DNA of 24,681 bases from an uncultured Clostridia bacterium (GCA_946496415.1 CAMMGP010000001.1:1-24681); one strand, 5' to 3'. Counted from the first letter of the stretch, positions 5,701 to 24,091 are shown. The notes: a model not told the origin generated them from the letters alone. Made by a program: numbers and translations.

Positions 5701-5744
5701 TCCAACAAATCTTAGACATCCGGCAAACGCGGTTTTGCCGGGGA

Positions 5745-5772: not shown

Positions 5773-5817
5773 GCGTTCATGAGGCCATGAACGAACGAGC
5801 ATTCTGAAAGGAAGGGC

Positions 5818-7308: not shown

Positions 7309-7313
7309 CAACT

Positions 7314-8273
7314 ATGCAGAAGAAAATGACCGGGAAACGGAACATTCAATGGAATGACATGGGCATTATCCTTACGCTGGTCGCGATGATCGTGATCTTC
7401 TCGGTGTTCACGAAATCCTTTTTCAGCCTGCGCAACTTTACGAACGTAGCGCGCCAGATCTCCGTAACGGGGATTTGCGCCGTGGGCATGACCATGGTCA
7501 TTCTCACCGGCGGCATCGACCTGTCCATCGGTTCGCTCATCGGCCTGACGTCCGCATTGGCCGCGGTGATGATGAGCAACGGCTGCCCCATCATCCTGGC
7601 GGTGCTGGCGGCGCTGGCGGTGGGCGTGATTGTCGGTTTCTTTAACGCCACATGTATCAACTATCTCTACATTCCGCCGATGATCACGACGCTCGCCATG
7701 ATGATCTCCCTGCGCGGCGCTGTGTATCTGATTACGGGCGGTATGCCCATCTACGGCATCCCGGAGCAGTTTAAGGTGTTGGGCCAGGGCTCCATCGGCG
7801 CGCTGCCCATTTCCACCATCATCATGGTGATCGTGTTCATCTTCGGCTATATTGTATTGGGGCGCACGCCCTTTGGCCGCCATATCTACGGCATCGGCGG
7901 CAGCGCGGAAACGGCGCGCCTTTCCGGCGTGAACGTAAAGCGCGTGCTGTACAAGATGTATATGCTGGTAGGGCTGCTGGGCGCGCTGGCCGGCCTGATC
8001 CTTACCTCCCGCGTCAATAGCGGTCAGCCCAGTTCCGGCGATGGCTATGAAATGGATATCATTACCGCTGTGGTGCTGGGCGGCGTTTCCGTGTCCGGCG
8101 GCGAGGGCAAGCTTGGCAAGGTCATCATCGGCGTCATCTTCATGGGCGTGCTGGCCAATGGCATGATGATGATGAACATAAACGAGTACTGGCAGCGTGT
8201 CGTTAAAGGCCTGGTATTGCTGGCCGCGGTTGCGGTGGATATCCGGGCGAAGAACAAGGCGAAGGCTGTGTAA
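7314..8273 (+). CDS. Monosaccharide ABC transporter permease (RbsC-like)
   Basis: Hydrophobic; GMTMVILTGGIDLSIGS, FGRHIYGIGGSAETARLSGV, ITAVVLGGVSVSGGEG. Confidence 0.95.
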   Translation: MQKKMTGKRNIQWNDMGIILTLVAMIVIFSVFTKSFFSLRNFTNVARQISVTGICAVGMTMVILTGGIDLSIGSLIGLTSALAAVMMSNGCPIILAVLAALAVGVIVGFFNATCINYLYIPPMITTLAMMISLRGAVYLITGGMPIYGIPEQFKVLGQGSIGALPISTIIMVIVFIFGYIVLGRTPFGRHIYGIGGSAETARLSGVNVKRVLYKMYMLVGLLGALAGLILTSRVNSGQPSSGDGYEMDIITAVVLGGVSVSGGEGKLGKVIIGVIFMGVLANGMMMMNINEYWQRVVKGLVLLAAVAVDIRAKNKAKAV

Positions 8274-8285
8274 CGGGAGGAAATG

Positions 8286-9371
8286 ATGGCAGTATTCTTT
8301 GATCCGCAGTTGGAAAAAAAACCGGATTTCGTCCGATGCATGGAGCGCATATACGCATGGTATGACCATGAAGTACTCGATCGCGTGCCGGTACGCTTTT
8401 CCGCGCACAACGCGGAATTTGATACGGCGGAGGCGATGGATCGCTGGCCCACCTTGAAGGATCGCTGGTATGACACGGAGCATCAGATCCAGAAAGTTCT
8501 GGAGACGGTCGAAAAGGGGAGTTTTTTGGGCGAAACCTTTCCGATGTACTTTCCAAACCTGGGGCCGAACGTCTTTGCGGGCATGATGGGCGCCCAGCTT
8601 GAGTTCGGCGATGTGACCAGTTGGGCCAGACCATGCCTCTCCGGGCCGGAGGATTTGAGCAAACTGGCGTTTAATGCGTCGAGCGAGTATCTTGTCAAAC
8701 TCAACGAACTTACCGATCGCGCGTTGGAGGTATGCGAGGGAAAGTTTCTGGTGGGCTACACGGACATGCATCCGGGGCTCGACTGCGCGGACGCCCTGCT
8801 GGGCACGCAGGAACTCTTTTATCAGATCATGGACGAACCAGATTTTGTAAAAGAGGTAATCCAGCGCTGCGCGGAGCCCTTCCTGGCGGTCATGGATCAA
8901 TTCCACGCCAAGCTTTTTGCCCATGGCCAACTCTCCGTTACGTGGATGCAGATCCCCTCCTACGAGGGCATGCACATCCCAAGTTGCGATCTGGGCGCCA
9001 TGGTTTCGGAAGATACGTTCAATGAATTTGCCCTGCCGTATATTCAACAAGAAGTGAAGCACTTCCGCCACAACATCTTCCACGTCGACGGCAAAGGCGT
9101 GGCGCGCCACCTGGACGCGCTTCTGGCCATCCCCGAGATCCAGGCGTATCAGTGGGTACAGGGCGTCGGCCTGGATCGCCCGATCATGCAGTGGGTGCCG
9201 CTCATCAAGCGCATTCAAGCGGCGGGGAAGAGCGTTGTAGTGGATCTGCATTTGGACGAACTCGAACCCTTTATGGATGCGGTGCGACCGGAAGGCATCC
9301 TTCTATGCATCGACGAATCCGACCCCGAAGTACAGCAGGCGGTTCTCGACAAGCTGCTGAAATGGAAGTAA
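8286..9371 (+). CDS. Uroporphyrinogen decarboxylase (URO-D)/methyltransferase-like TIM-barrel protein, function unknown
   Basis: FPNLGPNVFAG, GYTDMHPGLD, SCDLGAMVSEDTFNEFALPY, IFHVDG, YQWVQG, KRIQAAGKS resemble URO-D-like superfamily proteins. RBS GGGAGG (8275-8280) favours the second ATG (8286) over 8283. Confidence 0.65.
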   Translation: MAVFFDPQLEKKPDFVRCMERIYAWYDHEVLDRVPVRFSAHNAEFDTAEAMDRWPTLKDRWYDTEHQIQKVLETVEKGSFLGETFPMYFPNLGPNVFAGMMGAQLEFGDVTSWARPCLSGPEDLSKLAFNASSEYLVKLNELTDRALEVCEGKFLVGYTDMHPGLDCADALLGTQELFYQIMDEPDFVKEVIQRCAEPFLAVMDQFHAKLFAHGQLSVTWMQIPSYEGMHIPSCDLGAMVSEDTFNEFALPYIQQEVKHFRHNIFHVDGKGVARHLDALLAIPEIQAYQWVQGVGLDRPIMQWVPLIKRIQAAGKSVVVDLHLDELEPFMDAVRPEGILLCIDESDPEVQQAVLDKLLKWK

Positions 9372-9384
9372 GGAAGATGCACGC

Positions 9385-10104
9385 ATGAGAAAGATACGTT
9401 ATGAGGAAATGCTGCCCGCGGAATTTCTGGACGCGGTTCAGCACATGCCGGTATTCATCGTTCCCTTGGGATTGCTGGAATGGCACGCCGATCATCTGCC
9501 GCTGGGGCAGGACGCTTTGAAAGCGCATGGTATCTGTTTGCGCATCGCGGAAAAGCTGGATGGCGGGATCGTGCTGCCGCCGGTCTATTTCGGACGCCCT
9601 GGCTTTTCCACCTATACGGGAACGCTGACGTTTTCGGAAGCGCTGGTGAATCTGATGCTCAGCGAATTGTGCCAACAACTCAAAAAGGTCGGCGCGAAGG
9701 TGATCGTGTTCATGGTCGGGCATTACGGCCCCTTGCAGGAGCAATGTATCGAACGCGCTGCGATGATCCTGGCGCGAGAAAACCCGGATATACGCATCAT
9801 CGCCCACAGAGAGTGCGACGGCGTGGAGATTGACGGCGAAATGCCCTGCGACCATGCGGGAAAATGGGAAACGTCCATGTTCATGAGCATGTATCCAGAA
9901 CTTGCTCATATGGAATTGCTGCGCGATCCGCCCCTGCCGCAAAAACTCTATCCCAACGCTCCCCTTGATTTCTACCGCGAAAGCGCGGACTGGGTCTGGG
10001 AGACGGACGTACACGCCTCGAATCCGGAACTGGGCAGACGGGCCGTGGAAGCGGCGGCGCAGAATTTTGCCGGAGAGATCCTGACTGCGCTGCGGGAACT
10101 TTGA
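9385..10104 (+). CDS. Creatininase-family (creatinine amidohydrolase/MftE/ArfB-like) metallo-amidohydrolase
   Basis: PLGLLEWHADHLPLGQDA, VGHYG and DHAGKWETS carry the E-x-H, D, H, E metal-ligand pattern of the family. Confidence 0.85.
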   Translation: MRKIRYEEMLPAEFLDAVQHMPVFIVPLGLLEWHADHLPLGQDALKAHGICLRIAEKLDGGIVLPPVYFGRPGFSTYTGTLTFSEALVNLMLSELCQQLKKVGAKVIVFMVGHYGPLQEQCIERAAMILARENPDIRIIAHRECDGVEIDGEMPCDHAGKWETSMFMSMYPELAHMELLRDPPLPQKLYPNAPLDFYRESADWVWETDVHASNPELGRRAVEAAAQNFAGEILTALREL

Positions 10105-10267: not shown

Positions 10268-11761
10268 CTAGTGGATGCTGCGGCGCAGCGACCAAAGGCG
10301 CAGATCGCGCACGGAGGCTTCGCCGCCCCTTGCCTCGATTTCTATGCCATCCTGTTCTGCGGGCGCGAACACGTTCAGACTCTGGCAGACGCGCCCGCCG
10401 TCGGCAAATATCTCAATGGAATCCATATCGAGGAACACGCGCACCTCCATTGTCTCGCGTCCCTTCATGGGCAATGGCGCCCGGCATGTGCCGCGGCTCC
10501 AACCGTCGGCGTTGTTGCGATCAGCGCGCAATTCTGCGTTGGCAAGGTCGAAAGCGACCTCCACCGCCCTTCCGTTGCCCACGCGCAGGCGCAACAGAAC
10601 GGCGCTTGCCCGCGTGTGGGCAAGATCAAGCGTAAAATCCAATTCCGCTGCCGCGCCACAGCCGACGGCGCGCGCTTCGCCGCCTTTAAGCAGAAGATCG
10701 CAGCCGTCGACCAGCGGCAAGTCGCGCAGCGACTCGACCTCCTGGACAGGGCGGAAAGCCAGCGTATGGTCGGGCAGCATGACGACCTCTCGCGGCAGGG
10801 TCATGGCGCCGCACCAACCCTCCTTGTAGGTCGGTCCCCAATCCTTCCACCAGGGCATCCAGTCCCAGGCGTTCGCCCAACCGATCAGCAGCCTGCGCCC
10901 CTTGCCGTCGAGAAACGATTGTGGCGCGTAGCAGTCAAAGCCCCAATCCGTTTCGCCAGATATGTGATGGGAAAACCTGCCCGTCTTAAAATCCATTTCC
11001 CCGACGAGATAGACCGTTTTGCGTTCGCCCAAGCCCATCGGAGAGAACATCAGCACATACAGGCCTTCATCGCCGAGCGGGAAGAAGTCCGGGCATTCCC
11101 ACATATAGCCCAATTCGCCCCGGCTTTCGGCAAGAACGTTGACAAATTCCCACTGCAGCAGGTCTTCTGAGCGATAGAGCAGCGCCTGCGCCCGTTCGCT
11201 TTTCTTTGCGCCTACCACCATATAGAAAACGCCATCATGGGCAAACACGCGGGGATCGCGGAAGTTGGCGGGATCGTAGCCCGCGGGCGCCGTCAATACG
11301 GGATTCCCGGCATACTTTTCAAAGCGCACGCCATCTTCGCTCCAGGCGACGCATTGCGTCTGTTTGAAGCCGTCTCCCTCGTTGGTCGTACCTGTGTATA
11401 CAAGATACAGCTTGCCATCGTGCTCGATAGCGCTTCCTGAGAAACAACCGCCCTTGGGATGATCGTCGCAGGGCTGGTCAGGGATGAGCGCTGGCGGCAG
11501 ATATTCCCAGTGCATCAGATCGTCGCTGACCGCATGCCCCCAATGCATCATGCCCCAGAAAGCGTCAAAGGGGTTGTACTGAAAAAAGAGGTGATAGCGC
11601 CCGCGAAACCAGATGAGGCCGTTCGGATCATTCATCCATCCGACTTCGGGCATGAAGTGGTAATGTTGGCGCATCGGCGCATCCAACACGCCTTCCCGGG
11701 CCTGTGCGATATAGTCGGTCACGCCTTCGCACGTCTTACGCCTTGCAAGCAATTGGTTCAT
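10268..11761 (-). CDS. GH32 beta-fructofuranosidase / sucrose-6-phosphate hydrolase-like, cytoplasmic
   Basis: Catalytic motifs WMNDPNG, FRDP, WECPDF, plus WGHAVS and CFSGSA. Start moved from 11920 to ATG 11761 (RBS GAGGAGG, 16 nt after the GRE stop). No signal peptide. Confidence 0.93.
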   Translation of the reverse strand: MNQLLARRKTCEGVTDYIAQAREGVLDAPMRQHYHFMPEVGWMNDPNGLIWFRGRYHLFFQYNPFDAFWGMMHWGHAVSDDLMHWEYLPPALIPDQPCDDHPKGGCFSGSAIEHDGKLYLVYTGTTNEGDGFKQTQCVAWSEDGVRFEKYAGNPVLTAPAGYDPANFRDPRVFAHDGVFYMVVGAKKSERAQALLYRSEDLLQWEFVNVLAESRGELGYMWECPDFFPLGDEGLYVLMFSPMGLGERKTVYLVGEMDFKTGRFSHHISGETDWGFDCYAPQSFLDGKGRRLLIGWANAWDWMPWWKDWGPTYKEGWCGAMTLPREVVMLPDHTLAFRPVQEVESLRDLPLVDGCDLLLKGGEARAVGCGAAAELDFTLDLAHTRASAVLLRLRVGNGRAVEVAFDLANAELRADRNNADGWSRGTCRAPLPMKGRETMEVRVFLDMDSIEIFADGGRVCQSLNVFAPAEQDGIEIEARGGEASVRDLRLWSLRRSIH

Positions 11762-11777
11762 CGTATGTTCCTCCTCG

Positions 11778-14021
11778 TCAATTTCGCTGATAGCGCTGGG
11801 CGATCTCCCGCTGCATTTGCGGCTCGAGGTCCACGAAACGGGCGCTGTATCCGCATACGCGCACGACCAGGTCGCCGTGCGCCTCCGGATGGACAAGCGC
11901 GTCGGCGATGGCGGATTCATCCAGCAAGTCGAAGTCCGCGGCGCTTCCGCCCATTTCCAGGAAATAGCGGATCAGATGCTCGCACAAGGCGTCGTCGCCC
12001 TTGCCCAGGGAAAGCGGCAAGGTAAAATACGCCACTGCGGCCTGCGCAAAAGCCGTGAGATCAAGCGCGGAGAATGCGTGGATCATGGCGGCGATGCCCG
12101 TATGCGTGCTCTCCGAAGGATTGATGCCTCTTGAGAGCCGTTCGCCGGCATGACGACCGTTTGCCGAGGCGCCACACGGCTGTCGCATCCATTCATAACC
12201 GTAAAACGACCACACGGAGGCCTCGTAGTATCCGCCGCGCGCGTTTGGCATGTCGGCCATCGCCGTAGCGACGCCGTCGATCATCTGGCGGGCGAAGGCG
12301 TTGATGGAATCGTCGTCGCTGCCGTATTTGTCCACGCGGTTTTGCAGATACGCGCGTTCCGCCTCGAAGCCGGCAAAGTCGGCGCGCAGCATGCGGCAGA
12401 GTTGCTCGAGCGTGAAGCGTTTTTCTTCAAAAACGGTTCTCTCGATGGCGCGCATGGAGTCGATGAACGTGCTCAACCCCACCAGCGCGAAGGAACTGCC
12501 GTTGTAAAGCGCTCCGCCCTGCGTCAGGTCGCGCCCACGCTCCAGGCATTGGAGATTTGTCGCGGAAAGAAAGGGCAGAGGGTTGTTTTGCGGCCAGCGG
12601 CGTTCAAATGTATTGTAGTGCCAGGCGATGGCGTTGATGATCAGCGCCAAACCGCGGAACACTCGGCGGCTGAACTCCGCAAAATCATTGCAGCGTTCCA
12701 ACGTCGGCGGTAGTATGCGCTCCCGCGCGAAGAAACCGTCGTCGTTTTTCAGGAGCAGCATCTCCAGATAGCGGGCGGGGTTGAGATAACAAATGGCACG
12801 GGAATTGAGTTCCGTTTCCGCCAACAGCACTTCCTGACAGCCGCCGTTTACATACAGGCGCGAATCCTCGAGAGCCTTGCCCATGCGTGTCTGCGCCTGG
12901 ATGATCACGCGGTCGTTGAATATGGAAAGTACGTTCAGACCGCTGGAGGCGACGCGGGCAATCAGGGCAAAGTAGGCGTCATCCGCGCCGGGCGCAAAGC
13001 GCGCCTGTAGTTTGGGATTGACCAGCCGCAAGTCCAGATAGGCCGCGCAGATCCATTCCGTTACCGGATTGAACACCGGCGTACCATCGCGGTCGCAACC
13101 GCCGATGTTGATGGAGGTGTTCGTGCCGTAGACGGCATCGTGGAGATCCCATTTCGCGTCTGTAAAGGCGCAAAACCAGTAGAGCAGGTCGCGCGCTTCC
13201 TCCGGCGTGATCTCCCCGCTGGCAAGGTCGCGTTGAAGGTATGGCCAAAGCAGCCTGTCCACATGCCCCAGAATGGCCACGCCGGCCGAATCCAATACGT
13301 TGCCGAGTTCTTTCAGATAGAGGATCGTATTGAGCGCCTCAAAAAAGGTTCTTGCGCCCTCCAGAGGACAGCGGCGCGCGGAAACAGCGATGCGCGCCAG
13401 ACGCGCGCGTATGCTCTCGTCTGTCTCCCGCTCCAGCATTACCTCCGCTTCCTGAGCGAAGCGCTCGCCCAGGCGCGCTACACAATCGCAGGCGGCGATG
13501 GCCGCGCGCAGAAAGTCCGCGTCGCCTTGCCCCGCGGCCAGCGCGGCCTTGGCGCGCTCGCGCATCCCGGCGAAACCGTGGTTGAGAATGGTTTCCACGC
13601 CGGCGGCATTGTGCGCCAGATCTGCGTAAAGCGTCGAATAGAGTATGCCCGCGTCCATCGGGGGCTTGCGAAACGCCTCGAAATCCTCTGCAAGTCCGGA
13701 GCGGTCGCTGCGCATCACCCAGCTTCCCAGGCCGGATACCGGCGGAAACGCCGAGCCGAGCAGATTGCGCGGCGCGCCCGTGACCACCTCGAAATAAAAC
13801 GGATAATGGCGAAAAATCTTAACGGGGCAATTCCCGGCGATCTCCTCATAGACCCAGACCTTGCGCGCAAACGCGTTTGCCTGCGGACAGGCCGTCAAAC
13901 GCGCCTCTAGGCGCGCTTCCTGAGCGGATACGTCCGCGGGATAGAGCGCATACCAGGCGGCAAATTCCGCGCGGAAATCGGCGTATTCGCGGCCAAAGGC
14001 CGTCTTTTTCCAGCTGTCCAT
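11778..14021 (-). CDS. Glycyl radical enzyme (PFL-like superfamily), divergent and uncharacterised
   Basis: C-terminal Gly loop LVVRVCGYSARF (Gly724, nt 11850-11852); Cys loop YVNGGCQEV (Cys395, nt 12837-12839); LGHVDRLLWPY, INIGGCDRDG, ASANGRHAGERLSRGINPS; cognate activating enzyme two genes upstream. Confidence 0.9.
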   Translation of the reverse strand: MDSWKKTAFGREYADFRAEFAAWYALYPADVSAQEARLEARLTACPQANAFARKVWVYEEIAGNCPVKIFRHYPFYFEVVTGAPRNLLGSAFPPVSGLGSWVMRSDRSGLAEDFEAFRKPPMDAGILYSTLYADLAHNAAGVETILNHGFAGMRERAKAALAAGQGDADFLRAAIAACDCVARLGERFAQEAEVMLERETDESIRARLARIAVSARRCPLEGARTFFEALNTILYLKELGNVLDSAGVAILGHVDRLLWPYLQRDLASGEITPEEARDLLYWFCAFTDAKWDLHDAVYGTNTSINIGGCDRDGTPVFNPVTEWICAAYLDLRLVNPKLQARFAPGADDAYFALIARVASSGLNVLSIFNDRVIIQAQTRMGKALEDSRLYVNGGCQEVLLAETELNSRAICYLNPARYLEMLLLKNDDGFFARERILPPTLERCNDFAEFSRRVFRGLALIINAIAWHYNTFERRWPQNNPLPFLSATNLQCLERGRDLTQGGALYNGSSFALVGLSTFIDSMRAIERTVFEEKRFTLEQLCRMLRADFAGFEAERAYLQNRVDKYGSDDDSINAFARQMIDGVATAMADMPNARGGYYEASVWSFYGYEWMRQPCGASANGRHAGERLSRGINPSESTHTGIAAMIHAFSALDLTAFAQAAVAYFTLPLSLGKGDDALCEHLIRYFLEMGGSAADFDLLDESAIADALVHPEAHGDLVVRVCGYSARFVDLEPQMQREIAQRYQRN

Positions 14022-14032
14022 ATCGTTTCCCC

Positions 14033-15055
14033 CTAAAATACCAGCGCGACTTTGCGCCCTGCGCGGCTGCGCACCAGTTCGAATCCCTCGGCATACGCCT
14101 CTACCGGCAAACGATGGGAGACGAACTCCCGCAGATCCAGCTTTTTTTCGCTCACGAGCGAGCAGACGAAATCATGCGCGTCGCGCTCATAGCGGGCGAT
14201 CGGCCACTGCACGGAATGAATATTGAAGTTGTAGGGCGCGGCGTCCCAATCGATGCGGTCGCCGGTGTGCAGGCCAATGCCATAGAGGGCGATTTTTCCT
14301 TCTTCCTTGACCACCTGCATGCCCTGATCGATGATCTGCGCGCGTCCAACGCAGTCGATAAACAGGTCGAGCCCCTGCGGGAACATCGAGCGCAGCGCCT
14401 GCACGGTATCGACCTGCTTGGTATTGAAGGCCGCGTCCGCGCCCAGACGCTCCGCCGCGCGCAGACGATCTTCGTGATGACCGGCGAGCACGACGCGCCG
14501 CGCTCCCATCTGCCGGCTCAGCGAAACCATGGCCAGTCCCACCGGGCCGCAACCTACCACCGCCACATCCATGCCTGGCTGCAGGCCCAGGCGCGCGAGC
14601 GCCCCCGCCACCTCCTTGAGGGTGATGATCATCACCGCGTCTACGGGATCAATGTCTGCGGGGATCACTTGGCGCGTGCTCAGATCGATGTGCGCAGGCA
14701 CGCCATCCGCGATGCATGCGTCATAGTCATCCACAACGCCATACTCGGCAAAGCCTCCCCACCGGCTGTATACGTCCGGCAGGTCCGGCAGCGAGGAGCG
14801 CAACACGCGGTCGCCGACGTGGAAAGAACGCACCTTCGCTCCCACTTCAATCACTTCGCCCACGGCCTCATGACCGAGGACACAGGGGTATCGTGCGAAG
14901 TCGCGTAGCCCGCCGGTAAGCAACTTGAGGTCGGTACCGTTACAGATGCCACAAGCCACATTGCGGCACAGCGCCTGATGATCGCCGATGACAGGCATGG
15001 GCAGATCGTCCCGAAGGCGCAATACGCCGGGCTTTTCAATGACCAGTCCTCGCAT
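14033..15055 (-). CDS. MDR-superfamily zinc-type dehydrogenase/reductase (sorbitol/threonine dehydrogenase-like)
   Basis: CGICNGTD, LGHEAVGEV, GDRV, GGFAEY, GCGPVG. Start moved to ATG 15055 (RBS GGAGG). Confidence 0.88.
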   Translation of the reverse strand: MRGLVIEKPGVLRLRDDLPMPVIGDHQALCRNVACGICNGTDLKLLTGGLRDFARYPCVLGHEAVGEVIEVGAKVRSFHVGDRVLRSSLPDLPDVYSRWGGFAEYGVVDDYDACIADGVPAHIDLSTRQVIPADIDPVDAVMIITLKEVAGALARLGLQPGMDVAVVGCGPVGLAMVSLSRQMGARRVVLAGHHEDRLRAAERLGADAAFNTKQVDTVQALRSMFPQGLDLFIDCVGRAQIIDQGMQVVKEEGKIALYGIGLHTGDRIDWDAAPYNFNIHSVQWPIARYERDAHDFVCSLVSEKKLDLREFVSHRLPVEAYAEGFELVRSRAGRKVALVF

Positions 15056-15082
15056 AAGAAATTCCTCCATCATTCATTTCCG

Positions 15083-15955
15083 TCAAAAGGCGACTTCGAC
15101 GCCCCGACGCTCAAATTCTGCCGCCGCCACGCGCATTTGCGCGTCTGTTGGCGGCGCGTACTCGACGAATTGTCGCCCCAGGCGAACATATTTGCCTTTG
15201 CCCAGGGCATGGTATTTGAGAAGCTCAACGCGCAATTCTCCTGTGAGCGAACTCAGATACTGGGCGATCGCCTTCACTTGGCCAAGGTTGAGTTTTGCTA
15301 CCAAAGGCACGCGCACCACCACGGGGCGAACGCGCAACAAACGGGGCAGGTTTTGCAGTATGCGCGCGTTATCTACGCCCGTTACGCGGCGATGGAGGGC
15401 CGCGTCCATGGCCTTGATGTCGTAGAGAAATAGATCCGTGTCCTCCAACACGGCGTCAAAGCATTCCCAAGGAACGTCGCCGGCGGTGTCGACGGCCGTG
15501 TGCACGCCCTCGGCGCGCAGTATATGCAGAAGTTCCGCCGCAGCCTCCACCTGCAACAGGGGTTCTCCGCCGGAGAGCGTTACGCCTCCGCCGGAGATAT
15601 GGAACAGTTGGCGGTCGCGCAATGCGATGTGGGCGATCTCCGCTGCTTCCAGACGCTGCCCTGCCAGCTGCAAAGCCCCCGTCGGGCAACGCTGCGCGCA
15701 TTTGCCGCAGGCAAAGCATTTCGTGCGGTCGAACTGCGTCGGCCCCGCTGTCCGCGCTGCGCAAAGGCCAACGCAGGCGCCGCAGCCGATGCACTTCGTG
15801 GCGTCAAAGAGTATCTCCGGTTCCATGTGCTGAGACTCGGGATTGTGGCACCAGGCGCAGCGAAGCCCACAACCCTTGAAAAAGACTGTCGTGCGCGCTC
15901 CCGGTCCGTCGTGGAGCGAGAGGCGCTGTATATCAAAGATGGTCGCCTTGCTCAT
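15083..15955 (-). CDS. Glycyl-radical enzyme activating enzyme (radical SAM) with ferredoxin-like insert
   Basis: IFDIQRLSLHDGPGARTTVFFKGCGLRCAWCHNPES (CxxxCxxC); CIGCGACVGLC and CFACGKCAQRC; GGVTLSGGEP; HTAVDTAG; YDIK. Start taken at ATG 15955 (TTG 15964 possible). Confidence 0.93.
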   Translation of the reverse strand: MSKATIFDIQRLSLHDGPGARTTVFFKGCGLRCAWCHNPESQHMEPEILFDATKCIGCGACVGLCAARTAGPTQFDRTKCFACGKCAQRCPTGALQLAGQRLEAAEIAHIALRDRQLFHISGGGVTLSGGEPLLQVEAAAELLHILRAEGVHTAVDTAGDVPWECFDAVLEDTDLFLYDIKAMDAALHRRVTGVDNARILQNLPRLLRVRPVVVRVPLVAKLNLGQVKAIAQYLSSLTGELRVELLKYHALGKGKYVRLGRQFVEYAPPTDAQMRVAAAEFERRGVEVAF

Positions 15956-15973
15956 ATCTCTCAAACATCTTTC

Positions 15974-16002
15974 TTGCGTCCTGACGCAAAATGTGTTATC
16001 AT
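15974..16002 (+). promoter_or_regulatory. Promoter of the LacI-family gene, with extended -10
   Basis: TTGCGT (15974-15979), 17-nt spacer, TATCAT (15997-16002), with TG at 15994-15995 (TGn extended -10). Confidence 0.6.
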
Positions 16003-16050
16003 GGATCGAAAGTGTCGATCTACGGTTTTCCGCGCAGGGGGGTATATTCT

Positions 16051-17064
16051 GTGGTCAAACTCGATGATGTAGCGCGTTTGGCGGGCGTGTCCAAGGGCAC
16101 GGCGTCGCGCGTGCTCAACAACCGGGGCTATATATCGCCGCAAACGCGGCAGAAGGTAAAGCAAGCGATGAAAGCGCTCAATTACTTTCCCAACGAGAAT
16201 GCCCGCAACCTTCTGCGACAGCGTTCCGGCATGATCGGCGTAGTCGTGCCTACGATCACCTATCCGTATTATTCAGAGATCATATCCCATCTGGAGCGTT
16301 GCCTCAAGGAGCACGACTACAAAATGCTCCTCTGCAATACGGCATTCAATGCCGGCAACAACATTGACTATGTGCATACGCTCTCTAAGAATCGCGTCGA
16401 GGGCGCGATCCTGTTCAACTATCAGCTGGAGAACAAGGATTACGATGCGATTCCCTTTCCCATCGTTTCCATCGACCGCTTCGTCAAGGACAGCGTTTCC
16501 TTTGTCGCGTCCAATCACGAGCAGGGCGGCCTGTTGGCGGCCAACCATCTGATCGAGTGCGGTTGTCGGCATGTGATCCAGGTGGGCGGCTCCTTTCAAG
16601 AACTGACGCCTTGGAATATCCGCCATGTCAAATTCCGCGAAACCATGCGCGAAAATGGCATTGAGTGCATCAGTTACGAGCAGGCCTCCGACGACCATGA
16701 TTTCCACGATTATCGGGAGATCGTCCTCCAGCTGTTGCGCCAATACCCCGACACAGACGGCTTTTTCTGCAATGATCTGTGCGCCGCCGCAGCGCTTAAT
16801 GCCGCTACTTCGCTGAGCATACGCGTGCCGGAGCAATTGAAGATCGTCGGCTATGACGGCACCATTCTTTCAGAGATCGTTACCCCGGCCATCACCAGCA
16901 TTTGGCAAGATGTGCAAAAGATCGCCACATCCGCCTGCGAGATCCTGTTTCAGCGCATCGAAGATCCAGACACAACGCCCTGCAATATGCTCATTGGCGT
17001 CAAGTTGCTCAGGCGCGGAAGCACTGTGCCGGCGCGGACGCCCGAGATGCCGCCGAAGCGATAG
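16051..17064 (+). CDS. LacI-family transcriptional regulator (ScrR-like)
   Basis: HTH KLDDVARLAGVSKGTASRVLN, hinge YFPNENARNL, IGVVVP, FCNDLCA, VPEQLKIVGYDG. Start moved to GTG 16051 (RBS AGGGGGG). Confidence 0.93.
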   Translation: MVKLDDVARLAGVSKGTASRVLNNRGYISPQTRQKVKQAMKALNYFPNENARNLLRQRSGMIGVVVPTITYPYYSEIISHLERCLKEHDYKMLLCNTAFNAGNNIDYVHTLSKNRVEGAILFNYQLENKDYDAIPFPIVSIDRFVKDSVSFVASNHEQGGLLAANHLIECGCRHVIQVGGSFQELTPWNIRHVKFRETMRENGIECISYEQASDDHDFHDYREIVLQLLRQYPDTDGFFCNDLCAAAALNAATSLSIRVPEQLKIVGYDGTILSEIVTPAITSIWQDVQKIATSACEILFQRIEDPDTTPCNMLIGVKLLRRGSTVPARTPEMPPKR

Positions 17065-17094
17065 CGTCCGGCGGCATCGTTCTTTGCCGAAAGG

Positions 17095-18438
17095 TCAGCG
17101 GTAGTCCTCGCGCAGCTTTGCGGCGAAAGCCGTATTCAGCGCCGATTCCCGGCGCGCTTTTTCTTCTTTGATGCGGAATTGCGCTTCGCGGCGGGGGCGA
17201 TACTCCTCCCAGCGGCGCTCAAAGGCCTCGCGCGCCTTTTTTTGCTCGGGGGTAAGGTCGGCGCGTGGGTGCGGGGCGGGGATGGGCGCGGGCGTCACCG
17301 GCAGGCGCTGTTCCACCGGCAGTATGCTCATATCCGCCTGCGTGGGCAGAAGTTGATACCAGTAGGCGGTGGAACTCCAATCGTCGCAAAGATGGTTGGC
17401 GTGACCGTGCTCTATGGTCACACGCAGGCTCTTCTCGAAGTATACAGGATCCGTGATATGGAAGCGGTAAGCGACATGGAAGCCGTCCGTATCGCCTTCG
17501 TGCACGATGGTGCCGAAGAAGGGGAAGGCGTTGCGCTGCATGCCCCAGGCGTGGTTGAAGTAGTCCTCCGTACCGGTGCCGTTGAGGCTGGGATACTCCT
17601 CGCCATCGATGAAAAACATGTCGTTGCCCTCGCCCCACCAGCTTCCCTGGAAGTGGCGCACGCTGAGGTTGCAGCCGATGTAGTGCCCCTTGCCCTTTAC
17701 GTCCAGCACCACATAGTTGTCCTCGCCCTTGAGGTTGACCATCGTGTTCACTTCGGGGCTGTTGGTTTGTATATCCGGACCCCAGCCCTTGCAGGGGTTG
17801 GCGCGGTTCCACTTGGCGTGAAAGTAGGCGGTATCCTCCGGCAGCGGATGTTTGTACATTTCATAGTCGATATTGAAGTAGAGGATAAACGGCAGGTCGT
17901 TTTCGTTGATGATCTCGATCTTTGCCTTCTTGTTGAAGGGCATGGGTAGATAGCAGGAAACCGAGCAGGGCGCGCCGTAGCGTCCCGCCTCCTCGGGCTT
18001 GAGCGATACGTTGAACGGCAGCGAGGAGAAATTGCCCGGATAGCAATTGCCGATGCAGAAGAAGTCTCCCAGGGGCGCGAGAACGCTGGGCGTATCCTGG
18101 TCATCCCAGGTCATGCGAATAAGAACTTTGCGGTAGTAGAAGGGATCATAGTCGTCACGAATGACGCCCAGGGCCGGATGAATCTCGTTGACGGGCGCGC
18201 ACAACGCGTTGAGTTCGGGATCAAGTATGCTTGGCCCGTTAACGCGGCGGCAGGACGAGGTCATCCAGATGTGGGTAATGCAAGCGGGGCCTTCAATCTC
18301 GCCCAGCACGATGGTTTCGCCGGCGGGGATCATCCAATAATCCTGGTTCATGCCGCGCTGATCCCAGCTGGCAAGGCGGCCGTTGCGGGCGCTTTTGACT
18401 CTGGTGAGGTCGTTGAACATTCCGGTTATCTGTCCCAT
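17095..18438 (-). CDS. GH172 (DUF2961) glycosidase, likely difructose dianhydride I synthase/hydrolase (alpha-D-fructofuranosidase/alpha-D-arabinofuranosidase)
   Basis: GPACITHIWMT, APLGDFF, PMPFNKKAKIEI, WWGEGNDMFFIDG, NGTGTEDYFNHAW, TIEHGHAN, WSSTAYWYQ. Hand count puts the two Glu at 270 and 291, the numbering I recall for the catalytic pair of Bifidobacterium dentium alphaFFase1. RBS AAGGAGGA; no signal peptide. Confidence 0.88.
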   Translation of the reverse strand: MGQITGMFNDLTRVKSARNGRLASWDQRGMNQDYWMIPAGETIVLGEIEGPACITHIWMTSSCRRVNGPSILDPELNALCAPVNEIHPALGVIRDDYDPFYYRKVLIRMTWDDQDTPSVLAPLGDFFCIGNCYPGNFSSLPFNVSLKPEEAGRYGAPCSVSCYLPMPFNKKAKIEIINENDLPFILYFNIDYEMYKHPLPEDTAYFHAKWNRANPCKGWGPDIQTNSPEVNTMVNLKGEDNYVVLDVKGKGHYIGCNLSVRHFQGSWWGEGNDMFFIDGEEYPSLNGTGTEDYFNHAWGMQRNAFPFFGTIVHEGDTDGFHVAYRFHITDPVYFEKSLRVTIEHGHANHLCDDWSSTAYWYQLLPTQADMSILPVEQRLPVTPAPIPAPHPRADLTPEQKKAREAFERRWEEYRPRREAQFRIKEEKARRESALNTAFAAKLREDYR

Positions 18439-18462
18439 GGTGGTATCCTCCTTGCGATGCGT

Positions 18463-19296
18463 TTATCCCTTGACGGCTCCAGCGGTCATGCCCTCCATAA
18501 CGTTTCTCTGGAAAATGATATAGAGGATCAGTTCAGGAACGATAATCATCACGCTGTACGCGGCGATGCCGGCGTAATCGACGCTGTAGCGGCCGCGCAG
18601 GAAGGCGATGCCGCGCGAGAGCGTGTAGTTGGCGGAATCGTTCAGCATGATCGAGGCGAAGGGATATTCGTTCCAAATATACAGCAGGTTGAAAATAATC
18701 ACCGTCGCCAGCACGGGGCGGGCGATGGGCGCGATCACGCGCACGATGAGTTGCCCCAGCGAGGCGCCGTCGATGATGCAGGCTTCGTCGATCTCCCGCG
18801 GCACTGTGCGCAGATAATTCACGAACAGCAGCGTATTGAACGAAACCGATGTAGAGATATAGGGCATCACCAGACCGATCTTCTCTCGCAGACCAATGAA
18901 ATGGTTGATGCGGTAGATGGGGAAGAGCAGTATGAACGGACTAATCGCCAGACCGATGAGCATGAACGTATACAGCGCCGCGCGCACTTTGCCGCGCTTG
19001 TAGTCCAGGCGCGCCAGGGCGAAGGCGCTGGCAAAAGTGATGGGAATCTCAATGGCAAGCGTCACCAGGGCGACAAGCGCCGTGTTGCGATAGAGCAAGC
19101 CCAGATCCAGCTTTTCCAGCGCTGCGGCATAGTTGGAAAAGCTGGCCGACGCCGGCAGCGACAGGGGATCACGCATAATCTCGGCATTGTCCTTGAGGGA
19201 GATGAATACCAGCCAGATCAGCGGCAATATCACGAGGAAGGTGATGAGCGCCAGGGCGACGTACATCAGCGTTCGTGTAGACCTGTGTGTTACCAT
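18463..19296 (-). CDS. Carbohydrate ABC permease (MalG-like, CUT1)
   Basis: Hydrophobic; EAA loop VPREIDEACIIDGAS, WNEYPFA. Confidence 0.92.
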   Translation of the reverse strand: MVTHRSTRTLMYVALALITFLVILPLIWLVFISLKDNAEIMRDPLSLPASASFSNYAAALEKLDLGLLYRNTALVALVTLAIEIPITFASAFALARLDYKRGKVRAALYTFMLIGLAISPFILLFPIYRINHFIGLREKIGLVMPYISTSVSFNTLLFVNYLRTVPREIDEACIIDGASLGQLIVRVIAPIARPVLATVIIFNLLYIWNEYPFASIMLNDSANYTLSRGIAFLRGRYSVDYAGIAAYSVMIIVPELILYIIFQRNVMEGMTAGAVKG

Positions 19297-19297
19297 G

Positions 19298-20179
19298 TCA
19301 CAGCCTCCTTTCGCCGTGTTCGCGGGTGATAAACATGTAGGCGCCCATGATGACGAAAGAGATCAGGAAAGTCACCGTTGCCAGGGCCATGCCATACCCA
19401 TATTCGCCGCTTGCAAAGGTCATATCGTAGGAATATGTCACCAGCGTTTCCGAATAGTGCGTAGGTCCGCCGCCTGTAAGCTGTTGCACGACTTCAAAGA
19501 TCTTCATCGAGCCGGTGATGATCAGTACGCCTACGGAGATGAACGTGCCCTTCATCATCGGCACGGTGATGCATATCAGCCGCTGCCAGAAGTTTGCCCC
19601 ATCTACGGCGGAGGCTTCGTAGACTTCGGTGGGGATCGTCTTTAGGCCTGCCACATAGATCGCTGCGATATAGCCGACCTGTTGCCAGAAGTAGACCACG
19701 GAGATGCTGTATGGCGAGAGCGTGTCGCCGCCGATCCACTCCAGCGCCAGCGCGTCAAGGCCGATAGAGCGCAAGACGTTGTTGATCAGGCCCGTCACGG
19801 GATCCAGGATATAGCCCCAGATGACGCCGACGATGATGCTGGCGATGATTGCCGGCGAAAACAGCAGCGCCTTGCTGACGTTGGAAAAGCGCAGCCTTTG
19901 ATTGAGCAGCAGAGCCACGAAAAACGAGCCGACGCCCAGCAGAATCAGCGACATCACCAGTATGATGCAGGTGTTTTTCAGGGCGATGCCAAAGCTGGGA
20001 TCGTTAAAGAGGCGAATGTAGTTGTTCCAGCCGTAAAAGCGCGGCTTGCTGATGCCGCTGTAACGCATGAAACTGTAATAAATGGCGATGAATACCGGCA
20101 CGATCAGATATACGATGTAGACCGCCAGCGTCGGCGCCAGAAGGATTACTTTATTTCTCGTCTTGCTAAGCCAACCCAC
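19298..20179 (-). CDS. Carbohydrate ABC permease (MalF-like, CUT1)
   Basis: GWNNYIRLFND, EAA loop IPTEVYEASAVDGAN, GYGMALA; GTG start with RBS AAGGAG. Confidence 0.92.
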   Translation of the reverse strand: MGWLSKTRNKVILLAPTLAVYIVYLIVPVFIAIYYSFMRYSGISKPRFYGWNNYIRLFNDPSFGIALKNTCIILVMSLILLGVGSFFVALLLNQRLRFSNVSKALLFSPAIIASIIVGVIWGYILDPVTGLINNVLRSIGLDALALEWIGGDTLSPYSISVVYFWQQVGYIAAIYVAGLKTIPTEVYEASAVDGANFWQRLICITVPMMKGTFISVGVLIITGSMKIFEVVQQLTGGGPTHYSETLVTYSYDMTFASGEYGYGMALATVTFLISFVIMGAYMFITREHGERRL

Positions 20180-20233
20180 ATGTGCTCACTCCTTCTCGAT
20201 CCTGGTAAGCGTCGCCGCCACGCGCTGGCGGGG

Positions 20234-20276
20234 AAAAGAGCGCCGGCCTACCGGCATGGGTAGCGACCGGCGCTCT
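20234..20276 (-). terminator. Hairpin with a short U-tract after the binding-protein gene (leaky terminator or stabiliser)
   Basis: Outer stem AGAGCGCCGG (20237-20246) / CCGGCGCTCT (20267-20276), inner CTACC/GGTAG; AAAA at 20234-20237 gives UUUU on the - strand transcript. Confidence 0.55.
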
Positions 20277-20332
20277 GGCGCCTGCTTGGGCTGCGGCTTG
20301 AGCAGACGCTGGTGCCTTGCGCGCGGGGATGC

Positions 20333-21622
20333 TTACATCGCTGCCTCCGCGATCGCCGCGTCAATGATTTCCACCGCTTCTTCAGTGGTGATGTTGTTGA
20401 GCATCAGCGAGTTGAGCGCGTCGTAGAACGGCTCGTTGATCGTGGGAGAGAGCGTCGCCACCGGGTTGGCGGCCGTTATGCTGGTGTTGCCGTTGGCGAG
20501 CGCCGCGGCGATTTCCGCGAAGGCGGGGTTGTCGTTGGTGAACTCCAGGTCCTCGTAGTTGGTAGCGGGCATGTTGGAGTTCTCATAGAGAATGGCCGAG
20601 CCTTCCTCGCCGAAGTAGAAAGCCAGGAAGCGATAGACGGCGTCCTTCTTGGCCGCGTCTTCGCCGACGGAGGCGCTGACGACGAACGGAGCGTTGCCGA
20701 ACTGGTTGTTGATGTTCTGCGCGTATTCAGAATCGCTAAATTGCATGCCCCACCAGAAACCTACGTCATCGCCCAGCGCAGTGCCGATTTCAGCGGCGTC
20801 CCACTGGCCGGAGGTGAAGATCGCCGCCTGGCCGGTGGTGAAGAGGTTCTTGGCCTCAAAATAGTCGATGGTGGCCATGTTGGCCGGGAAGGCGCCCATT
20901 TCGCCCATCTCGCCCAGCTTGTCAAACAGCGGGCTGAAAATGGCGCTGCTGGCTTCGCCGGCGGTCAGCGCGTCCACATTCTCCGCGTATCCGTAGCGCA
21001 GCAGGCAGTCCAGCCAACCCCAGACGCTGTAATTGGTCATCGCGCCCTGAGCGAAGGTGGTCATGCCGCCTTCAGAGAAGGTTTCGATCATGGAAAGGAC
21101 GTCTTCGTAGGTGGTGGCATCGCTGGGATACTCTACGCCGTACTCGTCGAAAATCGCCTTGTTGTAGTAGAAGCCCGTCACCAAAGAGGTGTAGGGCAGG
21201 CCGATGATCTCGCCATTTTCGTTGACATAGCAGCTCTTCATGGCGTCAGACAAAGCCCCGCTGACCTCGGGATAGGTTTCGAGGAACTCGTCCAGCGGCA
21301 GCAGGAAGCCGTTGTTGCCGTATTCGGGAACGTCGCCTTCCGTGCACCAGAAGATGTCAGGCAGTTCACCGGTCTGCGCCCACAGACGCATCTGCGTGAT
21401 GTGATCCTCAGAGGCATTCTCGATCAGATCGATGGTTACGTCGGGATTGGCTTCCTGGAAAGCCTGGATCGCCGCATAGACTGCCGGTTCCTGTTCCGCG
21501 CAGTTGGCTACGTGGATTGCCAGCGTGATGGTAACATTTTCTTCTGCGGACGCGACTGCGGCCATGGACAGAAGCAATGCTACGACGGTCAAGAGGGCAA
21601 AAAGCTTGCGTACGGTCAACAT
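20333..21622 (-). CDS. Carbohydrate ABC transporter substrate-binding protein (CUT1, family 1)
   Basis: Signal peptide MLTVRKLFALLTVVALLLSMAAVASA; GELPDIF, LLPLDEF, IIGLPY, FYYNKAIFDEYG, FTTGQAAI, GQWD. RBS AAGGAGGA. Confidence 0.92.
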   Translation of the reverse strand: MLTVRKLFALLTVVALLLSMAAVASAEENVTITLAIHVANCAEQEPAVYAAIQAFQEANPDVTIDLIENASEDHITQMRLWAQTGELPDIFWCTEGDVPEYGNNGFLLPLDEFLETYPEVSGALSDAMKSCYVNENGEIIGLPYTSLVTGFYYNKAIFDEYGVEYPSDATTYEDVLSMIETFSEGGMTTFAQGAMTNYSVWGWLDCLLRYGYAENVDALTAGEASSAIFSPLFDKLGEMGEMGAFPANMATIDYFEAKNLFTTGQAAIFTSGQWDAAEIGTALGDDVGFWWGMQFSDSEYAQNINNQFGNAPFVVSASVGEDAAKKDAVYRFLAFYFGEEGSAILYENSNMPATNYEDLEFTNDNPAFAEIAAALANGNTSITAANPVATLSPTINEPFYDALNSLMLNNITTEEAVEIIDAAIAEAAM

Positions 21623-21715
21623 TCAGATTCCTCCTTATTTTTGCGGTCGTGCCGCGATTGGACGCATGAGAAGTACGTTTCAAATATATTCATCGATAAT
21701 CACATTTTCAAGTAC

Positions 21716-21744
21716 ATTATAACGGCTGCGATGCGCTTTGTCAA
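21716..21744 (-). promoter_or_regulatory. Perfect-consensus sigma-A promoter for the CUT1 ABC/GH172 operon
   Basis: On the - strand: TTGACA (21744-21739), 17 nt, TATAAT (21721-21716). Confidence 0.85.
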
Positions 21745-21852
21745 TGGTATATCTTAATTATATTAGCGAATTCGGGCAAATTATATCCAAATTATAGGTG
21801 TGAAACCATATTTTTTACAGAAACAGCGCACAAAGAATCACGAAATTATATG

Positions 21853-21864
21853 GCAATCGATTGC
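21853..21864. promoter_or_regulatory. Candidate LacI-family operator
   Basis: Perfect palindrome GCAATCGATTGC with the AAnCGnTT core typical of LacI-family sites, about 110 nt upstream of the -35. Confidence 0.4.
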
Positions 21865-21881
21865 TTTATGATGTTGCGGAA

Positions 21882-22735: not shown

Positions 22736-24091
22736 TCAGGCTTCCTGTTCCTCCCGCGCCAGCGGCAGGGCGATGGTAAAACAGCTGCCTTTGCCCGGTA
22801 CGCTTTCGACCTCCACCTCGCCGCCGTGCAGCCGGGCAATGCGCTGCACCAGCGAGAGACCCAGCCCTGCGCCGCCAGCGTGGTGCGAGCGGTCACCCTG
22901 ATAAAAGCGCTCGAAGATGTGGGGAAGGGCCTCCGGCTCGATGCCGGGGCCGTCGTCCTCCACGATGAGGCGTGCCGTTTCGCCCTCCGCGCGCGCGGCG
23001 ATGCGTATATGCCCGCCCTCGCGCCCGTATTTGACGGCGTTTTCCGCCAGGTTGAGCAGCGCCTGCGTGAGCATGGTCTGGTCGCACATCGCCCACACGG
23101 GGCCGTCCACAGCGCACTCCACCGTCATGCCCCGCGCCGCCGCGCCCTCCTCCACCTGCATGGCGGCAACTTCGGCAATGTCGGCAAGATCCATGCGCTC
23201 CATTTCCATGCGCGTCTGCCCCGCGTCCATGCGCGTCAGCGCCAGCAGGCGGCCGATGAGCGTGGACATCTGCCCCGCGCGCAGGCGGATGTCGCGCAGC
23301 GCCTCCTCCTTGTCTTCCTCATTGGCGATGTCGGAGAGGGCGAAGTCCGCCTGCGCGAGGATGGCGGCCACGGGCGTGCGCAATTCGTGCGAGGCGTCCG
23401 AGGTAAAGCGCCGTTCGCGCTCAAAGGAGCGCTCCAGGCGGTCGAGCATGTCGTCAAACACCCTGGAGAGCCGGTAAAGCTCGTCGCGCGCGCCCTGCAA
23501 GCCGATGCGCTTTTGCAGATCTTTTCCGTCGATGATGCTCTCCGCCGTGCGCGCGATGCGCGTGACCGGCCGGAAGGCGCGGCGGGCGATGAAGTACCCG
23601 CCCACGCCGGCGACCACCACCAGCGCCGGCAGCAGTGCCAGCAGCAGCGTCGGGCTCATGTCGTTCAAATTGGGGGCGGCGTCGGCGGAGATGTAGCAGC
23701 GCAGCCAGATGTCCTCCGCGTCGGGGAAGGACATGCGCGTGTCCAGCACATACCAGCGCTCGCCGGAGCGCTCCGCAGCCGGGCGGATGACATTTTCCTC
23801 AAAGGGCAGGTCAAAGCGCCACTTGCCGTAGATGAGGTCGCCCGATTGCGTGTAGAGCGAAACGCGCACGCTGGGCAGATCGTCTAGATTGCGGTCGATC
23901 TCCAGCTGCCCGTCCTCCATGCGCACATCGTTGAGCGCCAGCTGCGTCGTGCCGACGAGCGCCTCCTCGTAGTAGTTGTCCATCATCCGCTGGGCGCTCC
24001 AAAACAGCGCCCCGGCGGCGAGCAGGGCGATCAGCGCCACCAGAAGCGTGTACCAGAAGGTGACGCGCGCCTTGATCGACAGCCGCTTCAC
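22736..24091 (-). CDS. OmpR-partner sensor histidine kinase (HAMP, HisKA, HATPase)
   Basis: FTSDASHELRTP, NLAENAVKY, VEDDGPGI, IFERFYQGD, GAGLGLS; GTG start overlapping the regulator stop. Confidence 0.93.
   Translation of the reverse strand: MKRLSIKARVTFWYTLLVALIALLAAGALFWSAQRMMDNYYEEALVGTTQLALNDVRMEDGQLEIDRNLDDLPSVRVSLYTQSGDLIYGKWRFDLPFEENVIRPAAERSGERWYVLDTRMSFPDAEDIWLRCYISADAAPNLNDMSPTLLLALLPALVVVAGVGGYFIARRAFRPVTRIARTAESIIDGKDLQKRIGLQGARDELYRLSRVFDDMLDRLERSFERERRFTSDASHELRTPVAAILAQADFALSDIANEEDKEEALRDIRLRAGQMSTLIGRLLALTRMDAGQTRMEMERMDLADIAEVAAMQVEEGAAARGMTVECAVDGPVWAMCDQTMLTQALLNLAENAVKYGREGGHIRIAARAEGETARLIVEDDGPGIEPEALPHIFERFYQGDRSHHAGGAGLGLSLVQRIARLHGGEVEVESVPGKGSCFTIALPLAREEQEA

Follow-up and report, generated by a model that had tools for sequence, protein, structure and literature searches.

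To our knowledge, only a few dozen functions have been assigned to glycyl radical enzymes (GREs). New functions in this superfamily have revealed distinct anaerobic chemistry in the gut, e.g., the conversion of choline to trimethylamine, the dehydration of hydroxyproline, and anhydroglycolysis. 'Anhydroglycolysis' is the name given to the Escherichia coli systems YbiW/YbiY-FsaA and PflD/PflC-Frw (Ma et al. JACS 2024, as summarized in PMC13450708 and PMC12441222). On the fructoside side, the difructose dianhydride I (DFA I) operon of Bifidobacterium dentium encodes a LacI regulator, the GH32 enzyme BBDE_2039, the GH172 enzyme alphaFFase1 (BBDE_2040), and an ABC transporter (BBDE_2041-2043); alphaFFase1 interconverts DFA I and inulobiose as well as diheterolevulosan II and beta-D-Frup-(2->1)-Fru, and its authors raised an unknown metabolic pathway for caramelized sugars (PMC8605356). 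A June 2026 review of the GRE superfamily counts six C-O eliminases and three isomerases, none of which is linked to fructosides. Here, we analyze a locus in which a GRE is encoded among fructoside genes. It lies in a stretch of 24,681 nucleotides from an uncultured Clostridia bacterium of the chicken gut (GCA_946496415.1, CAMMGP010000001.1:1-24681; hereafter, the window), which is an entire contig of a metagenome-assembled genome (MAG). With moderate confidence, we read the locus as a LacI-controlled accessory cassette that joins a B. dentium-type DFA I/alpha-fructofuranoside locus and the radical module of a putative C-O-cleaving GRE.

Based on a listing of open reading frames (ORFs) and on Pfam/NCBIfam scans, the locus comprises nine genes between 10268 and 21622, and the gene arrangement given in a preliminary description of the window, including its intergenic gaps and ribosome-binding sites (RBSs), proved accurate for all of them. 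One minus-strand operon encodes the solute-binding protein (SBP) and two permeases of a CUT1 ABC transporter followed by a GH172 enzyme. The second minus-strand operon encodes, in this order, the GRE activase, a medium-chain dehydrogenase/reductase (MDR), the GRE, and a GH32 enzyme, with gaps of 27, 11, and 16 nt, in each of which a purine-rich RBS can be read from the DNA. The plus-strand lacI gene lies between the two operons, convergent with the GH172 gene and divergent from the activase gene. The features of the locus are as follows.

10268-11761, minus strand: cytoplasmic beta-fructofuranosidase of family GH32, encoded at the distal end of the GRE operon (Pfam GH32 N- and C-terminal domains)
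11778-14021, minus strand: GRE (Pfam PFL-like and Gly_radical)
14033-15055, minus strand: MDR zinc dehydrogenase, probably of the sorbitol dehydrogenase/ketose reductase type (Pfam ADH_N and ADH_zinc_N)
15083-15955, minus strand: GRE activase, a radical S-adenosylmethionine enzyme with a ferredoxin-like insert (TIGR02494)
15956-16050: divergent lacI/activase control region of 95 nt, with GATCGA-N5-TCGATC and the ATGATAAC element
16051-17064, plus strand: LacI-family repressor (Pfam LacI and Peripla_BP_3)
17095-18438, minus strand: GH172/DUF2961 enzyme, an alphaFFase1 ortholog, alpha-D-fructofuranosidase/DFA I synthase-hydrolase (Pfam DUF2961, match to 7v1v)
18463-19296, minus strand: CUT1 ABC permease, MalG/UgpE-like (Pfam BPD_transp_1)
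19298-20179, minus strand: CUT1 ABC permease, MalF/UgpA-like (Pfam BPD_transp_1)
20333-21622, minus strand: CUT1 ABC SBP, first gene of the transporter-GH172 operon (Pfam SBP_bac_1)
21687-21704, minus strand: operator-like imperfect palindrome with the core TTATCGAT, just downstream of the -10 box
21716-21744, minus strand: sigma-70 promoter of the SBP operon, TTGACA, 17 nt, TATAAT (12 of 12 consensus positions)
21851-21866: second, distal operator-like palindrome, AAGCAATCGATTGCCA

The GH32 gene starts with the ATG at 11761, which is preceded by a GAGGAGGA RBS, and not at 11920; a longer GH32 ORF that overlaps the GRE gene is an artifact of taking the first in-frame ATG. The lacI ORF opens at 15991 and ends at 17064; judged from the position of the helix-turn-helix, a GGGGGG RBS, and orthologs of 328 amino acids, its start is probably the GTG at 16051.

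The window and the B. dentium operon have in common LacI, a cytoplasmic GH32 enzyme, a GH172 enzyme, and a CUT1 importer. The window GH172 is of the alphaFFase1 type: it matches B. dentium alphaFFase1 (PDB 7v1v) with 855 bits over residues 1-445 and ~80% full-length identity, and the segments with the catalytic Glu residues, WWGEG and GTGTEDY, are identical. The window GH32 has the WMNDPNG, RDP, and EC motifs as well as the propeller N-terminal and sandwich C-terminal domains of this family and scores 367 with TIGR01322 (scrB family; cut-off, 356). In contrast to the published operon, for which none of the three is listed, the window has the activase, MDR, and GRE genes inserted between lacI and GH32 and, therefore, GH32 is the last gene of the radical operon. 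The Blautia GH91 DFA III cluster (PMC11538131) resembles the window in that it belongs to gut Clostridia, imports a difructose dianhydride, and leads from inulobiose to fructose via GH32; however, it relies on GH91 instead of GH172, and its description makes no mention of a radical enzyme or a dehydrogenase. With E. coli YbiW/PflD, the window shares a PFL-like GRE, a CxE Cys loop, and a dedicated activase, and the pathway that we propose for the module would also share with them sugar catabolism by C-O cleavage beside a CHOH group followed by an aldolase. While YbiW/PflD function with import by a phosphotransferase system (PTS) and a fructose-6-phosphate aldolase (FSA), the GRE-module loci (~35) have a CUT1 ABC transporter, a PfkB kinase, and a class II aldolase, and they differ further by the obligatory MDR partner and by the glycoside hydrolases in the same unit.

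The GRE belongs to the PFL-like GRE superfamily (PF02901 at 6e-93 and PF01228 at 2e-11) and has its radical glycine, Gly724, in RVCGYSA. The adjacent activase scores 315 bits with TIGR02494 (cut-off, 174), and its CX3CX2C motif reads CGLRCAWC in the DNA. The Cys loop, GGC395QE397, is invariant across 38 homologs and contains the CxE motif, which, with Glu as the base, defines the 1,2-eliminase and isomerase classes of GREs (PMC13450708). When the active site is mapped onto that of glycerol dehydratase 1r8w, His137 takes the place of His164, and Cys395/Glu397 take the places of Cys433/Glu435; YbiW also has this His in a pairwise alignment with the GRE. By alignment, the GRE carries the Cys/Glu/His set of C-O-cleaving eliminases and isomerases. 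The substrate pocket is different, in that H281/S282, D447, and Y339 of 1r8w are replaced by G247/V248, A409, and N301; G247, A409, and His137, together with a family-specific Cys309, are invariant in the 38 homologs. In its fold, glycine loop, Cys/x/Glu, and general-acid His, the GRE agrees with the B12-independent glycerol/propanediol dehydratases (1r8w and 5i2a); it differs from them by a score of ~205 bits, a divergent N-terminus that is ~40-100 residues shorter, and a context with neither a microcompartment nor an aldehyde dehydrogenase.

The preliminary description knew of no described GRE linked to GH172/GH32, and no characterized GRE is close to the one in the window. Each solved GRE, with CutC, glycerol dehydratase, HypD, and PflD among them, is matched with ~200 bits, and the scores with all NCBIfam equivalog models are far under their cut-offs. 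A literature search for a GRE linked to GH172, difructose, fructopyranosidase, or anhydrofructose returned nothing relevant. The GRE is provisionally best filed as a new GGCQE clade and pathway variant within the C-O-cleaving GREs and outside YbiW/PflD. We considered and rejected an assignment to YbiW/PflD because the scores are far under the cut-off (209 bits vs 1109 for the PflD model NF007437; identities of 27% to PflD and 25% to YbiW) and the gene context is different.

Among solved structures, the MDR is most similar to sorbitol dehydrogenases (at ~90 bits) and to a ketose reductase that depends on NADP(H). In the family alignment, the catalytic Zn ligands are kept (the Cys of CNGTD, and GHE), the structural Zn loop is missing, and Gly replaces the NAD-specifying Asp. 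The MDR is probably a ketose reductase or polyol dehydrogenase that uses NADP(H).

The activase-MDR-GRE module is a fixed unit in gut Bacillota that has repeatedly been joined to GH32, GH172, or c7, a protein described below. A pattern scan with one genome per species gave 109 GRE relatives, and the ORFs of 80 loci were clustered and the recurrent clusters annotated. A maximum-likelihood tree of the GREs has three groups. The Bacillota clade comprises 30 rows (SH-aLRT 96); the other two groups are mixed and consist mainly of Planctomycetota, Verrucomicrobiota, Lentisphaerota, and Armatimonadota together with four Bacillota rows. The MDR gene is limited to the Bacillota clade, where it adjoins the GRE gene in every member with enough flank, and the CUT1 transporter nearly always accompanies GRE-MDR. 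Among the 32 informative loci, including seven added from metagenome contigs, 18 have GH32 or a divergent GH32, 16 have c7, and 26 have GH32, c7, or both. GH172 and GH32 occur together in eight (the window, L001, L084, L006, L013, L092, L093, and L094), in which GH172 is 66-87% identical to that of the window (73-79% in L092, L093, and L094). Thus, of the partners claimed in the preliminary description, the linkage of the GRE to fructoside genes stands, while GH172 is not a constant partner, being present in 8 of ~32 informative loci; rather, the conserved partners are the MDR and the CUT1 transporter.

Several of these loci are informative in detail. L001, with a GRE that is 72% identical, repeats all nine genes in unchanged order, with other DNA on either side. 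L084 has the exact cassette of the window followed by a fructokinase-like PfkB, a divergent PfkB, and an aldolase; the SBPs of L084 and L001 share 75-80% identity with that of the window. L092, L093, and L094 combine GH172, GH32, the radical module, and a kinase in three further gene orders and, in L094, they form one co-directional 11-gene unit, LacI-GH172-GH32-SBP-permease-permease-MDR-GRE-activase-PfkB-aldolase. Because L001 repeats the cassette between different flanks and the association recurs in other orders, a chance juxtaposition is ruled out. Some loci are near-duplicates (L003/L004, L026/L027/L040, and L002/L005) and, therefore, independent lineages are fewer than loci; nevertheless, the module is associated with glycosidases in at least four well-separated subclades. 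The preliminary description considered the GRE to be tied to the fructoside genes by more than proximity. This view is borne out by the conserved linkage, which is kept across GREs of 38-72% identity, and by the operators shared in sister loci. Moreover, it had named as an argument against itself that close GRE homologs might mostly lack GH172 and GH32; this argument does not hold, as among GREs of >=50% identity, 13 of 14 loci have GH32 and 7 of 14 have GH172.

More distant homologs have other neighborhoods. In Lentisphaerota/Verrucomicrobiota, three to five tandem GRE paralogs occur with a single activase (L058, 700-12145; L054, 3091-18481; L064, 6197-14678), and Planctomycetota GRE homologs are flanked by sulfatases and AraC regulators and are without MDR. 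These tandem and sulfatase-flanked homologs probably have a different, glycan-related function. In L065, a gene for a large serine recombinase lies directly upstream of the module and a GH31 gene follows the aldolase gene (256-1983 and 12105-14099); the recombinase suggests a mobile element. GH31 includes alpha-glucosidases and alpha-1,4-glucan lyases, and this gene may hint at a different feed-in sugar in its subclade.

c7 is a protein of ~690-930 amino acids without a Pfam or NCBIfam match (e.g., L006 14577-17321). A profile from 12 c7 sequences finds GH32 enzymes through their N-terminal blade (E = 2e-6) and gives weak matches to C-terminal parts of GH94/GH65. In an AlphaFold model (pLDDT 81, pTM 0.83), an (alpha/alpha)6 half matches GH94 phosphorylases, GH78, and GH116, and the N-terminal half matches GH32 fructosidases. 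This GH32-like half is without catalytic motifs. Because the N-terminal half is GH32-like, the commonest glycosidase partner of the module is also related to fructosidases. L007, L008, and L042 have a short c7 (689 amino acids) beside a separate gene for a 318-amino-acid GH32-like protein, which, by sequence, looks like the unfused state of c7. c7 may represent a new glycoside hydrolase or phosphorylase family. An identity as a GH91 DFA III hydrolase was rejected because the model consists of a GH94/GH78-like (alpha/alpha)6 part and a catalytically degenerate GH32-like N-terminus.

In the majority of the complete loci, a PfkB kinase and a class II aldolase are also encoded, neither of which is present in the window. 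The preliminary description had noted the lack of a sugar kinase; this holds for the window, in which Pfam scans of the remaining large ORFs revealed no sugar kinase, but not for the pathway, for which the sister loci encode a dedicated PfkB and a class II aldolase. Therefore, the pathway continues beyond the window. The module-linked PfkB proteins are of two divergent types, ~25% identical to each other and to the fructokinase-like PfkB. The module-linked class II aldolases form one orthologous group (mostly 61-85% mutual identity), to which the other class II aldolase of the window's genome is 43-47% identical. In the window MAG (1.56 Mb, 285 contigs, 70.6% complete), we found no c7 and one weak PfkB match; the kinase and aldolase may be encoded elsewhere in this incomplete genome.

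The SBP promoter is the best consensus site in the region. Palindromes centered on AATCGATT are present upstream of the SBP gene in the window, L001, and L084, in the latter two at the position that corresponds to 21687-21704, and the only AATCGATT in the whole window is within the distal palindrome at 21851-21866. In L002-L005, the LacI proteins of which are 64-65% identical to that of the window, the SBP promoter is closely followed by TGACAATCGATTGTCA, a palindrome that is perfect or nearly so, and the lacI-activase gap holds a related site, TGAnnnATCGATTGTTA. The 9-mer ATCGATTGT is confined to the SBP upstream region and the lacI-activase gap in L002-L004 (11-19 kb; ~0.1 expected by chance); in L005, it is found only in the lacI-activase gap, the SBP site being the one-base variant ACCGATTGT. 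In the window, the lacI-activase gap has degenerate TCGAT cores, and its ATGATAAC element is conserved with L001 at 17 of 20 positions. Predicted from these sites, co-regulation of both operons by a LacI operator is well supported, i.e., clear in L002-L004 and supported in L005; for the window itself, it is suggested.

Other features of the two operons concern the transcript. A GC-rich hairpin (GCGGC, 3-4 nt, GCCGC) with an A-run lies directly before the SBP RBS in three diverged loci (window, 21632-21660; L001, 1935-1955; L084, 135-155) and is possibly a 5'-untranslated region stabilizer or a regulatory stem. lacI is inverted within an otherwise co-directional run of 11 kb. The convergent stops of GH172 and lacI are 30 nt apart (17065-17094), with no convincing terminator between them, and read-through from the SBP promoter across lacI in antisense is conceivable.

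We found neither the GRE nor an alphaFFase1-type GH172 in nine genomes of the same genus or in 35 of 36 genomes of the same family. Because GH172 is ~80% identical to the bifidobacterial protein, the cassette is a horizontally acquired accessory island. DNA nearly identical to the window is present in chicken-gut metagenomes from several studies. The GRE clade is found in at least 109 species-level genomes, and one 90%-identity cluster has >3,000 member sequences. Cultured human isolates with this clade include Blautia fusiformis, Blautia sp. XA-2221, Ruminococcus sp. AF46-10NS, and three Diplocloster species; therefore, the GRE module is directly testable.

For the reaction, we infer that the GRE uses a thiyl radical to abstract an H atom next to a C-O bond and that this bond is subsequently cut, either in a YbiW/PflD-like ring opening or in a diol-dehydratase-like dehydration; Cys395 would provide the thiyl, Glu397 would serve as base, and His137 would serve as acid. 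The substrate would be a fructose-derived unit beyond the reach of the glycosidases, and import by a CUT1 ABC transporter instead of a PTS argues that it is unphosphorylated. Because the conversion of DFA I to fructose needs no radical step, the module should process what the hydrolases leave. The candidates named in the preliminary description, i.e., a fructopyranoside, an anhydro-sugar, or a polyol, are plausible. Tentatively, and well aware that the proposal is doubtful, we put first the possibility that the GRE is a radical, non-hydrolytic 'glycosidase' for ketopyranosides that feeds the MDR, kinase, and aldolase. The preferred substrate would be the beta-D-fructopyranosyl unit that is left when GH172 opens diheterolevulosan-type dianhydrides, e.g., Frup-beta-2,1-Fru from diheterolevulosan II. 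The GRE would take H5 of the fructopyranosyl ring and cut C6-O6, thereby turning the ketal into a hemiketal, the collapse of which would release the aglycone fructose and 6-deoxy-5-ketofructose. Subsequently, the MDR would reduce 6-deoxy-5-ketofructose to a 6-deoxyketohexose, the PfkB kinase would form the 1-phosphate, and the class II aldolase would yield dihydroxyacetone phosphate (DHAP) and lactaldehyde. The CH2-O/CHOH arrangement of the beta-D-fructopyranosyl ring corresponds to C1/C2 of 1,5-anhydromannitol, the core of the PflD substrate; 1,5-anhydromannitol is in effect 2-deoxy-fructopyranose. As a working hypothesis, this scheme would use every conserved gene and explain the tie to GH172.

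If true, cleavage of ketopyranosides would be the first case in which a glycyl radical serves to break a glycosidic bond, and it would supply the route that has been lacking for those dianhydrides of caramel and heated fructans that contain a pyranose. The fixed pairing with a dehydrogenase, kinase, and aldolase and the repeated joining to GH172/GH32 point to an undescribed catabolic branch for fructose-derived compounds, for which heated or processed food and fructan-rich plants are likely sources.

Several observations weigh against linking the cassette as a whole to fructosides through the radical step. B. dentium grows on DFA I without a radical module, so DFA I itself needs no such step (PMC8605356). 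Six informative loci (the Diplocloster group, L065, and L086) have the module without GH32, GH172, or c7, the Diplocloster-type subclade being without any glycosidase; therefore, the substrate of the GRE may be a directly importable monomer, and an anhydro-alditol or a polyol may suit these loci no less well than a fructopyranoside. The lacI-activase gap of the window has no clear operator copy and no consensus promoter. Contigs from chicken-gut RNA libraries match GH32, GRE, MDR, and SBP almost perfectly, but they cover the neighboring operon equally, which is compatible with DNA carry-over. Finally, we infer the NADP(H) preference of the MDR as well as which of the MDR and GRE acts first, and the tie of the GRE to any particular substrate is read from gene content and sequence.

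Next after cleavage of ketopyranosides, and unlikely in our estimate, comes a route via polyols, in which the fructose from GH172/GH32 would be reduced by the MDR to mannitol or sorbitol and the GRE would be a hexitol dehydratase that forms 1-deoxyfructose or another deoxyhexose; the kinase and aldolase would then split the deoxyhexose, and the route would mainly serve as an electron sink in the fermentation of fructose. The closest solved relatives of the MDR, i.e., sorbitol dehydrogenases together with a ketose reductase that depends on NADP(H), fit this route, as does the Cys/Glu/His set that the GRE shares with diol dehydratases, and fructose is the sole product common to GH32 and GH172. 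CUT1 systems also carry polyols, which would explain the loci without glycosidases. However, the pocket residues of glycerol dehydratase (H281/S282, D447, and Y339) are not kept, and 1-deoxyfructose-6-P cannot provide the DHAP half on which class II ketose-phosphate aldolases normally depend. Nor would a general redox valve be expected to be so patchy or tied to particular importers.

Still less probable, we suggest, is that the module opens unphosphorylated ether-type anhydro sugars that enter by ABC import, i.e., an ABC-dependent anhydroglycolysis with candidates such as 1,5-anhydroglucitol, 1,5-anhydromannitol, MDR-reduced 1,5-anhydrofructose, and sorbitan-type compounds. According to this model, the fructosidases would be co-regulated merely since heated or processed plant food supplies both classes of compounds. 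The chemistry has its precedent in YbiW/PflD, with the CxE motif common to both and the aligned His in YbiW, and it matches the minimal loci, in which the transporter, MDR, GRE, and activase are joined at most by the kinase and aldolase and a Gfo/Idh/MocA oxidoreductase is often nearby. The GH31 gene after the aldolase gene in L065 can be read in the same way. On the other hand, the loci have no established glucan lyase, the GH32-type or c7 glycosidases of 26 of the 32 informative loci make no anhydro-alditol, the aldolase is class II and not FSA-type, and the identity to YbiW/PflD is 25-27%. From the accessory nature of the whole cassette, the bifidobacterial affinity of its GH172 (~80% identity), and the serine recombinase flanking L065, it might be argued that the radical module has no functional connection with the fructoside genes and is only carried along with them on a mobile island. 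This is highly improbable given that the association holds through at least five different gene orders and among GREs with as little as ~40% identity, that the gap of 16 nt couples the translation of GH32 closely to that of the GRE in the window, and that a shared operator precedes both operons in sister loci.

The window contains two further groups of genes. On the plus strand at 714-10104, genes for a Peripla_BP_4 protein, a Cache/HAMP histidine kinase, and an AraC-type response regulator form a sensor set, which is followed by a CUT2 ribose-type ABC system, a 362-amino-acid protein, and a creatininase-family hydrolase. The 362-amino-acid protein has no Pfam match and is weakly URO-D-like (27% over 109 amino acids to the URO-D protein of L086); genes of the URO-D family adjoin GRE homologs in L030, L031, L059, L063, and L086. 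At 22736-24681, a histidine kinase/OmpR-type regulator pair has several-fold deeper coverage and many base differences in four of four runs, and this pair at the window end is probably shared by related organisms.

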